Below are positions 36,947 to 40,293 of a DNA stretch of 64,000 bases, in pieces (position 1 is the stretch's first letter; every line of letters begins with the position of its first letter). The notes under the pieces were generated by a model. The model saw only the letters and a list, made by a program, of their open reading frames with translations, had not been told where the DNA came from and did not search any database. The stretch lies in assembly GCF_045037415.1 (NCBI RefSeq), contig NZ_CP173438.1, one strand, 5' to 3'. The translations under genes were made by a program, and so were the position numbers. Origin of the DNA: Escherichia coli (GTDB taxonomy: Bacteria > Pseudomonadota > Gammaproteobacteria > Enterobacterales > Enterobacteriaceae).

Positions 36947-38761
36947 TTAATTCATCCACACCGTAGCCGAAATGGCAGGCAAAGCCAGAATCCCGTCCGT
37001 CAGTTGCCCGTGACCTTCTTTGCGTTGCCATTGCGCGACATTAAGCAACGGCGACGCGGGTAGCACCACTTCACAGGCTTCGCCACGGTTGATTGCCACC
37101 AGTACACGCTGCTGATTCAGCACGCGGACAAATACCACCACGTTATCTTCCGCATACAGCACCTGACAGCCGCCACGACGCAACGCCTGACTTTTCTTAC
37201 GCAGCGCAATCATTCGCTGGTACAGCGCGAATAACGCCGAATCCTGCTTTTCCACCTGCCAGGGGAACGGCTTACGGCAAAACGGATCGTTTTTGCCATC
37301 CAGTCCCACTTCATCACCGTAATAAATGCACGGTACACCAGGCCAGGTGAACAGCCAGACCACCGCCAGGGGCAGGCGCGCAACATCCCGACCGAGCAGC
37401 GTTTTAAATCGCGCAGTATCGTGGCTGTCGAGCTGATTAAACATACGTAATTGTTGTTGATGAGAAAGCCCTGCGCGGTAATTATCCATCCAGGCCATAC
37501 AGGTTTGGGCGTCAATTTGCTGCGGATCGTAAGAGATATCGGTGTTGGCAAGAAATCCCCACAACGGGAATGTGAAGCCGCGATAGTTCATGGCGGCATC
37601 TTCCACATCGGCCTGTAACCATTGCCGTGCATCGCCAAAATGTTCGCCGACAATATACGCATCCGGCTGGGTTTCTTTCGCCGCTTCGGTGATCCCGGCA
37701 ACGTGCTGCAAATTATTGCGCGCCCCACCCGCTTCCCCCAGCATATGCACCACATCCAGCCGCCAGCCATCCATATTCCACGGCGCTTTCAGCCAGTGGC
37801 GGACAATACTGTCTTCCCCGCGATAAATTTCATTCACCAGACTTTCCGACTGATAATCCAGCTTCGGCAAGCTGGCATAGCCCAGCCAGTCGAGCGCCGT
37901 GCCATCATCACTAAACGAGTACCAGTCACGCCAGGGTGATTCGGGGTTGTGACAAGCTCCCCCCGTGCCACGATTGTGCCTGTCAAACCAGGCATGGGAA
38001 TCGCCACTGTGGTTAAACACGCCGTCCAGCACCAGTCGTATTCCCAGCTGCTGCGTATTGTGTCGCAAACGCAGCAACGCCCCATCACCGCCAAACTGCG
38101 GATCGACATGGCGATAATCCTCGGTATCGTATTTATGCACGCTGGGAGCTTTAAACACCGGATTGAGATACAGCGCCGTCACGCCAAGTTTTTTCAGATA
38201 CGGCAGTTTTTCACTTATCCCGTCCAGATCGCCGCCATAGAACGTTGATCCGCCAGCCTGCGCCGTGACCGGTTCATCCCAGTCACGCAATATGATCTCT
38301 TGTCCGGCTGCGTGATGGTAATAGACATGATCCTGTTCAGCTTCACGAGGAAGATTACGGGCGAAACGATCAGGGAAGATCTGATAAAAAATCTGATCCG
38401 CAGCCCATTGTGGGCCGATATCCGGTACATCGATGGCAAACTGCTCCTGTCGTGCCGGCGGCATTCGGCTGAAGCCTTGCGGTGTAAACCAACGCTGGCG
38501 ATCGTGCCACAGCAATTTGAAACTATAACGCCGCCGAGGTTGTCCGCAGGAGAGCTCGATCGCCGCCCGCCATGCGGTGACGCCAGGCTGCGGCTGACTG
38601 CGCTGCTTATGCATCGGTACTGACATTTCTTCGTTATCGTGTTCTGTACGCAGCATAATGCGCTGCGGTGGGTCTTCGCCCGTCAGCCACAGTGTAATGA
38701 GCAGTTGATCTTTGCTTTGTTTAACAAATGGGGGCACCGGCAGATGCCATGCATTTAACAT
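36947..38761 (-). CDS. malZ: Maltodextrin glucosidase
   Basis: GH13 alpha-amylase family sequence (..[11 protein letters not shown].., ..GWRLDVVHM..); tandem ATG-ATG start, so 38764 is the alternative start; I took the second (604 aa). Confidence 0.9.
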
Positions 38762-38839
38762 CATAATTCCCCTGTGATGAAAATCTGATCACCTTGCCAT
38801 AGCCTAATGCAGGATCACTCATCATCTGAAGGATATTTG

Positions 38840-38849
38840 GGGGAGGAGG
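38840..38849 (+). promoter_or_regulatory. MalT-box-like motif GGGGAGGAGG upstream of malZ
   Basis: Exact match to the MalT box consensus GGGGA(T/G)GAGG as I recall it, ~80 bp upstream of the malZ start; malZ is a known MalT-activated gene. Confidence 0.4.
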
Positions 38850-38874
38850 ACGGGGGCGGATAACTTTCGGAATA

Positions 38875-38903
38875 GCCGGATCAGGATTTCCTCCTGAACC
38901 GGC
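38875..38903 (-). terminator. Terminator-like hairpin downstream of proY
   Basis: GCCGGATCAGGA / TCCTGAACCGGC near-perfect 12-bp inverted repeat, 17 nt past the proY stop; weak U-tract. Confidence 0.4.
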
Positions 38904-38919
38904 TTACAGAACGCAAGGA

Positions 38920-40293
38920 TTACTGGTTTTCAGCCAGCTGACGATCGTGGCGGCGCTTAAACATCCAGCCAATCAACAGCACAACAATCCACGCGAAACC
39001 AACATACAGCGAGATACGCGTATCAGGGTGATAACCAATCAACCCGATAATAAAGAGCAGGAAAATCAAACCGCCGATGGTCGTTGCTACCCCACCCGGC
39101 ACTTTAAATTTCAGCGCCTTAACTTCTTCTGGCGGCAAACGGCGACGGAAGGCGATTTGCGACAGCAGGATCATAATCCACACCCACACCGTGGCGAAGG
39201 TTGCCAGCGAAGCGATCACCAGGAAGACGTTTTCCGGCATGATGTAGTTCAGATACACCGCAAACAGCAGCGCGGTAGTCATCACCAGCACCGTAACCCA
39301 CGGAATACCGCGACGCGAGGTTTTGCTGAAAATTTTTGGCGCGCTGCCCTGCTCTGCCATACCGTGGAGCATACGGCCTACACCAAATACGTCACTGTTA
39401 ATTGCCGACAGCGAAGCGGTCAGCACAACAAAGTTAAGAATGCTGGCGGCAAAGGTAATGCCCATATGCTGGAACGTCAGCACAAACGGGCTACCGGCAG
39501 TGCCAACCTGATTCCACGGGTAGATAGACATAATGACGAACAGCGTACCGACGTAGAACACCAGAATACGCATCGGCACGGAGTTAATCGCACGCGGAAT
39601 CGATTTCTCAGGATCTTTCGCTTCACCGGCGGTAATCCCGATAATTTCGATCCCACCGTAAGCAAACATCACCATTTGCAACGACATCACCATACCAAGC
39701 CAGCCGTTACTGAAGAAGCCGCCGTTGCTCCACAGGTTATGAATACCGGTCGGTTGCCCGCCGTTGCCAATCCCCCAGATGATGATGCCGAAACCGGCGA
39801 CAATCATGATGATGATAGTGGCGACTTTAAAGAACGAGAACCAGAACTCCAGCTCACCGAATACCTTCACGCTCATCAGGTTTACGGCGCAAATGATCAG
39901 CACCACACTCAGTACCCAAATCCAGTGCGGCACCGTCGGGAACCAGACACCCATATAGATACCAAAAGCGGTCACATCGGCGATGGCGACAATAAGGATT
40001 TCAAAGCAGTAGGTCCAGCCGGTAATGTAACCTGCCAGCGGGCCGAGGTTTTCCTGCGCATAACGCGAGAAAGAGCTGGCTGCCGGGTTATGTACCGACA
40101 TTTCCCCCAGCGCACGCATAATGATATACGCCGCGATACCACCGATAATATAGGCCAACAACACGCTTGGACCGGCCATTTTGATGGCATCTGCCGAACC
40201 GTAAAACAGCCCGGTGCCAATTGCTGAACCCAGTGCCATAAAGCGTATGTGTCGGGTACTTAGCCCACGCTTTAGCTTGTTCTTACTTTCCAT
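38920..40293 (-). CDS. proY: Proline-specific permease ProY (APC family)
   Basis: ORF 38920..40296 trimmed to first ATG (457 aa) [33 protein letters not shown]. Confidence 0.9.

Follow-up and report, generated by a model that had tools for sequence, protein, structure and literature searches.

The exact match to the MalT box that lies between proY and malZ, GGGGAGGAGG, is very probably the middle one of three MalT sites in the sigma-70 promoter of malZ, from which transcription is predicted to start near position 38784 of the window (the whole 64-kb stretch of DNA analysed here). MalT is a regulator activated by maltotriose and ATP, malZ encodes maltodextrin glucosidase, and this gene has been counted in the MalT regulon since the early 1990s. 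In the mechanism that we propose, a MalT oligomer would bind sites 3, 2, and 1 cooperatively, the first two pointing away from malZ and the last one towards it, and would bring RNA polymerase to a promoter that lacks a -35 hexamer and carries the extended -10-like element TGGCAAGGT. The hairpin found between proY and these sites would belong to the 3' end of proY, where it would terminate transcription weakly or stabilise the transcript end and so keep proY transcription apart from the malZ promoter.

The genetic context of these elements is that of the reference strain. Of 5,426 complete E. coli genomes, 5,424 have a match to a 501-bp stretch around them, and the annotation there gives proY and then malZ. 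Both genes are read on the minus strand: the coding sequence of proY spans 38920..40293 (annotated in 5,424 E. coli genomes; stop codon at 38920-38922) and that of malZ spans 36947..38761, with the K-12-annotated ATG at 38761 and a second in-frame ATG at 38764. The proY-malZ spacer of the window is identical at every base to that of K-12 MG1655, and K-12 coordinates are obtained as 461279 minus the window coordinate. Published data place malZ among the MalT-regulated genes and show that it drops with other mal operons in malT-mutant lines (PMC9645810), and its membership in the regulon is also given in PMC4451989. MalT multimers bind their boxes cooperatively and recruit RNA polymerase (PMC10427625, PMC4381067). 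Nothing in the malZ promoter is structurally unusual. A three-box, maltose-inducible promoter for this gene is already known and ordinary: Tapio et al. (1991) reportedly described MalT boxes and MalT dependence for malZ, and Vidal-Ingigliardi, Richet and Raibaud (1991) are said to have described MalT promoters as having a proximal site at -37.5/-38.5 and two upstream sites in direct repeat. The importance of the present analysis is small beyond correct annotation. Its value lies in a precise map, supported by conservation, that locates the three boxes, the extended -10, and the probable start; this map corrects the impression of a single box and places the exact match at a distal site and not at the one adjacent to RNA polymerase.

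We used as consensus the asymmetric MalT box 5'-GGGGA(T/G)GAGG-3' (GGGGAKGAGG), as quoted in PMC7567727. The decamer GGGGAGGAGG, at 38840..38849 on the plus strand, matches it at 10/10 positions and is the sole exact match in the 64 kb. Since 10 of 100 shuffled sequences also contain at least one exact match (0.10 are expected in the window), and since there are 6 matches with one mismatch when 4.6 are expected, the decamer taken alone exceeds chance only modestly. The frequency of such decamers, one in 10% of shuffles, is what speaks for the G-rich motif being a coincidence devoid of regulatory role. We nevertheless find this hardly credible, because the geometry in which the decamer is embedded is common to other mal promoters, is conserved in about 78 loci, and does not turn up in random sequence. 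The original prediction had placed an exact MalT box near the proY hairpin, roughly 80 bp upstream of malZ and within about 25 bp of the hairpin, and the measurements agree with it: the box, inside the range of that prediction, is 79-88 nt upstream of the K-12-annotated malZ ATG and 24 nt from the base of the hairpin. Its assignment to the malZ promoter also appears sound, as judged from the three-box geometry, the conservation, and the likeness to the other mal promoters. On the malZ coding strand the site reads CCTCCTCCCC and is thus directed away from malZ. Because it lies in a CCT-periodic run (38837-38852, enclosing the whole site), box-like matches are also found in registers shifted by 3 bp (CGTCCTCCTC, 8/10, and CCTCCCCCAA, 7/10).

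The exact decamer, hereafter site 2, had been taken for the one clear copy of the box. This is refuted by a scan in both orientations, covering the malZ spacer and the K-12 upstream regions of malP, malE, malK, and malS, which found three conserved boxes in the spacer. Site 3, GGGGCGGATA, lies at 38853..38862 on the plus strand, in the same orientation as site 2, and matches 7/10 positions. The starts of these two sites are 13 bp apart, with a 3-bp spacer, and they form a direct repeat, reverse to malZ, of which site 2 is the promoter-proximal member. Site 1, GATGATGAGT, lies at 38817..38826 on the minus strand, forward to malZ, matches 7/10 positions (5/6 in the core), and is offset from site 2 by 23 bp (13 nt between them). 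The number and orientation of the boxes, which had been left to be checked, are thereby given as two reverse boxes separated by 3 bp and one forward box 23 bp downstream, the exact box being reversed relative to malZ like the distal boxes of malP, malK, and malS. Read in the direction of malZ, the layout is TATCCGCCCC-CGT-CCTCCTCCCC-13 nt-GATGATGAGT-17 nt-TGG-CAAGGT. A composite motif of this layout has one match in the window, at malZ, and, with the score cut-off slightly relaxed, also matches the K-12 malP and malS loci. A set of 100 random 64-kb sequences gave no match. Sites 1 and 3 are the weaker matches to the consensus in E. coli, each only 7/10, site 3 scoring 9-10/10 in many other genera, and site 1 is the one expected to contact RNA polymerase.

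Other box-like sequences of the spacer were considered and set aside. Both lie in the hairpin. One is CCGGATCAGG (38876-38885), a reverse match at 7/10 positions, and the other is a GGAGGA core that points towards malZ, in the 5' arm and the loop. They were rejected because they are unconserved even within Escherichia (loci L003 and L004 differ) and because they are off the 13-bp repeat spacing. Just downstream of site 2, an A/T-rich block (38827-38839) is moderately conserved despite its position in a spacer. It contains CAAATAT in E. coli and CAATAAA in most genera, and its malK counterpart is CATAAAAAA, at the same place. This block may act as a bend or be part of the MalT contact.

The boxes are maintained far beyond E. 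coli. We sampled one genome per species, which gave 80 MalZ loci across Enterobacteriaceae, 79 of them usable, in genera including Escherichia, Citrobacter, Salmonella, Enterobacter, Klebsiella, Raoultella, Leclercia, Kosakonia, and Kluyvera. The best-scoring arrangement has the exact 17-nt, 23-bp, and 13-bp spacing in 76 of the 79 loci. Scores of at least 9/10 are reached by site 2 in 55 loci and by site 3 in 39, and site 1 scores 6-7/10 in nearly all of them. When 75 loci are aligned without gaps and anchored on the TG, the most conserved block is the extended -10, TGGCAAGGT, with 1.67 bits per column, followed by site 3 (1.46), site 2 (1.45), and site 1 (1.36); the spacers have 0.5-0.7 bits and the 32 columns upstream, in the hairpin region, 0.11 bits. 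The boxes are still kept in the 11 loci that lack proY upstream, and therefore they serve malZ, not proY. At the scale of the species, 5,099 of 5,424 E. coli genomes have an identical 91-bp core, the segment running from site 3 as far as the predicted start, and the adjacent 91 bp, which hold the hairpin and the end of proY, are identical in 3,252 of 5,406. A divergent allele of the spacer is found in E. coli AST81 (L087, 52-232), with 94.5% identity over the 91-bp core. Its site 2 is GGGGATGAGG, i.e. the other form allowed by the consensus (G to T at the K position), its site 3 has changed from CCGCCCCC to CCACCCCC, its hairpin mismatch is closed, and one base differs just upstream of the predicted start.

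The comparison with the other mal promoters shows that malZ, K-12 malP, and K-12 malS have in common the box layout followed by 17 nt-TGG-CAAnnT. The malPQ promoter, malPp, is the reference MalT-dependent promoter. Like malZ, it carries a pair of reverse boxes spaced by 13 bp (GCTCATCCCC and ACTCCTCCCT), a forward box 23 bp past the second (CAGGATGAGG), and TGG CAAACT 17 nt further on, so that all spacings are equal in the two promoters; the box scores are 9, 8, and 8 out of 10 in malPp and 7, 10, and 7 in malZ. Unlike malZ, malPp contains an additional box-like sequence, CCTAATCCCC, that lies between its sites 2 and 1; its -10 hexamer is CAAACT instead of CAAGGT, and its upstream neighbour is the divergent malT, whereas that of malZ is a co-oriented gene with a hairpin. 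The promoter of the alpha-amylase gene, malSp, shares with malZ a forward box, AGGGATGAGT, followed by 17 nt and then TGGCAAACT, which in both malP and malS is at a malZ-like distance from the forward box. A reverse box, TCTCATCCTG, is 24 bp upstream of the malSp forward box, and the distal reverse box is weaker (6/10). The promoter of malK-lamB-malM, malKp, contains the identical decamer, also reversed, within CCTCCTCCCCCA, in the order TCTCATCCTC, 3 bp, CCTCCTCCCC, and then the forward box GGGGTGGAGG; the second reverse box is 13 bp upstream, as in malZ, and the forward box is at 24 bp instead of 23. The malK -10 does not fit TGGCAAnnT, unlike that of malZ. The exact box is flanked by box-like matches shifted by 3 bp at both malKp and malZ, and MalT is known to shift its register by 3 bp at malK upon CRP binding, malKp being co-activated by CRP and sharing a divergent control region with malEp. 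Finally, malE resembles malZ in the spacing between the forward box and the hexamer, since its forward box is 20 nt before GAAACT.

The extended -10-like element TGGCAAGGT (38791..38799, minus strand) begins 17 nt after site 1 and consists of TG, n, and the hexamer CAAGGT. An A at position 2 and a T at position 6 of the hexamer are kept in all genera, always after TG-n, and the base 7 nt past the hexamer is a near-invariant A among the 75 aligned loci, which corresponds to 38784. The malZ promoter has no -35 hexamer; a consensus sigma-70 scan called no promoter for malZ, as would be expected if the promoter depends on an activator and lacks this hexamer. The malE start was taken from a published 454 read (PMC2760140 supplement), which maps to -44 and differs by 1 nt from the catalogued malEp. 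This start falls 8-9 nt after GAAACT, so that the hexamer occupies the -10 position and the forward box of malE is centred at about -38.5. Given the conserved hexamer with its TG-n, the near-invariant A, and the analogy with the malE start, we predict that malZ transcription starts at the A in 38784 (minus strand; K-12 422495, +/-1 nt), with a leader of about 23 nt. If so, the centres of sites 1, 2, and 3 would be at about -37.5, -60.5, and -73.5, good to about 1 nt, and site 1 would sit in place of a -35 hexamer. An inverted repeat, GTGAT-N9-ATCAC (38774-38792), covers both the predicted start and the beginning of the leader, and a TCATTTT block conserved in other genera coincides with this region.

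The exact box could instead be the promoter-proximal MalT site itself, over the -35, with a start 33-38 nt downstream (around 38807) and GATGAT or AGTGAT as the -10. This would fit a secondary source that puts the MalT box beside the -35 region (PMC7567727), and GATGAT (38821-38826) does have an A at position 2 and a T at position 6. A number of arguments make it very unlikely. First, the box nearest to the -10 in malP, malS, and malE is a forward one, spaced by 17 nt plus 3 from the hexamer. Second, the malE start agrees with the forward box as the proximal site. Third, the most conserved block of the region, the extended -10, would be left unexplained in the leader. Fourth, the GATGAT block is AAAGAGGAGG or AAGAAGGAGG in several genera, which is box-like and not -10-like. 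We thus retain site 1 as the candidate proximal site and the exact box as the middle one.

The hairpin is a stem-loop, AGCCGGUUCAGGA-GGAAA-UCCUGAUCCGGCU (38874..38904, minus strand), that begins 15 nt past the proY stop codon and whose base is 11 nt from site 3. It has 12 pairs, 8 of them G-C, and one U.U mismatch, with a folding energy of about -22 kcal/mol (z = -3.2). It is like an intrinsic terminator in being a stable, G+C-rich stem-loop directly after the stop codon, and unlike one in that the E. coli hairpin has no U-run, whereas other genera have a T-run there: its tail, AUUCCGAA, has 2 T in the 8 bases after the stem. Because there is no U-run, and because the terminator scan does not call it in E. 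coli, the hairpin does not qualify as a canonical intrinsic terminator in this species. The suggestion that it is a leaky terminator thus holds in part: the hairpin is stable, and the 2 T in 8 bases together with the silent scan make leakiness plausible, but the canonical terminator is not there. The E. coli hairpin probably terminates only weakly. Among Escherichia variants, compensatory changes are found at 2 of the 13 stem pairs, and where the K-12 and window allele has its U.U mismatch, one lineage has an A-U pair and another a U-A pair. As the stem is kept by changes on both sides, we conclude that selection acts on the structure. Across genera the hairpin sequences are unrelated, yet in 57 of 78 loci there is a hairpin at most 70 nt from site 3, with a median gap of 5 nt. 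At least 5 T are found in the next 8 bases for 10 of those 57 hairpins, and several more have a T-run drawn into the stem. The simplest reading is that of a proY terminator or 3'-end stabiliser repeatedly maintained in front of the malZ promoter, which it would insulate. The supplement of the E. coli 3'-end map (eLife) has no entry for the 3' ends of proY or malZ.

The origin of this stem-loop may differ between lineages. A search of Rfam assigned it to no family, and the sole match, to a plant miRNA, is a chance one (E = 0.58). We rejected the possibility that the E. coli hairpin is a REP element, since a 91-nt query including it is single-copy per genome, and the K-12 annotation has no repeat feature at this place. 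Palindromes that we take to be REP-like, GCCGGATAAG...CTTATCCGGC, occupy the position of the hairpin in Salmonella and some Citrobacter (L009, L010, L012, L022, L025), 60-80 nt upstream of site 3, and in one E. coli allele (L004) the ends of the hairpin arms are REP-like. In some lineages, the stem-loop that follows proY may have been derived from, or replaced by, REP elements.

The proximity of the hairpin to the boxes raises the question of whether they are functionally coupled, in either direction. On the one hand, a hairpin without a U-run might let transcription read through from proY, resulting in basal, MalT-independent malZ expression or in promoter occlusion. On the other hand, MalT bound to sites 3 and 2 might stand in the way of polymerase coming from proY and produce a maltose-dependent proY 3' end. 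Geometry allows such coupling: the hairpin base is merely 11 nt from site 3 in E. coli, the short gap recurs in the 57 of 78 loci mentioned above, only 2 of the 8 bases in the E. coli tail are T, and a polymerase ending at the hairpin would, judging from typical polymerase footprints, overlap sites 3 and 2. We still think any measurable coupling unlikely, as a terminator adjoining the next promoter is the usual layout in compact bacterial spacers and the boxes are retained where proY is not upstream. Moreover, hairpins differ in sequence between genera, many with a proper T-run, which fits insulation rather than coupling. The proY starts are also weak, with 7-10 reads versus 54 for brnQ (PLoS Genetics 2012 start-site table). 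In the more specific form of the idea, where the MalT complex at sites 3 and 2 is a maltose-dependent roadblock that sets the proY ends or where read-through provides the basal malZ expression, we regard it as quite unlikely. If true, the spacer would form a small module of interference between terminator and activator, more than a terminator followed by a promoter, and the mutual influence of proY hairpin and MalT would be a minor regulatory detail. A single metagenome-assembled locus speaks for coupling: in L044 (Enterobacteriaceae bacterium UBA7338, ~1946-2003), malZ begins 55 nt after proY and has no boxes at all. This locus has no hairpin either, and an extended -10-like TGGCAGGGT remains. 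Here malZ may naturally rely on read-through from proY, or the locus may be an artefact of assembly.

We favour insulation of the malZ promoter from proY by the stem-loop. Among the rows listed in the PLoS Genetics 2012 start-site table, from cells that we assume were not maltose-induced, the sole malZ start has 5 reads and is inside proY. It maps to about 39283 (K-12 U00096.2 421220), 519 nt upstream of malZ, and a similar internal start is listed for Klebsiella proY, with 3 reads. These weak starts may be noise or may reflect a weak internal promoter reading towards the hairpin.
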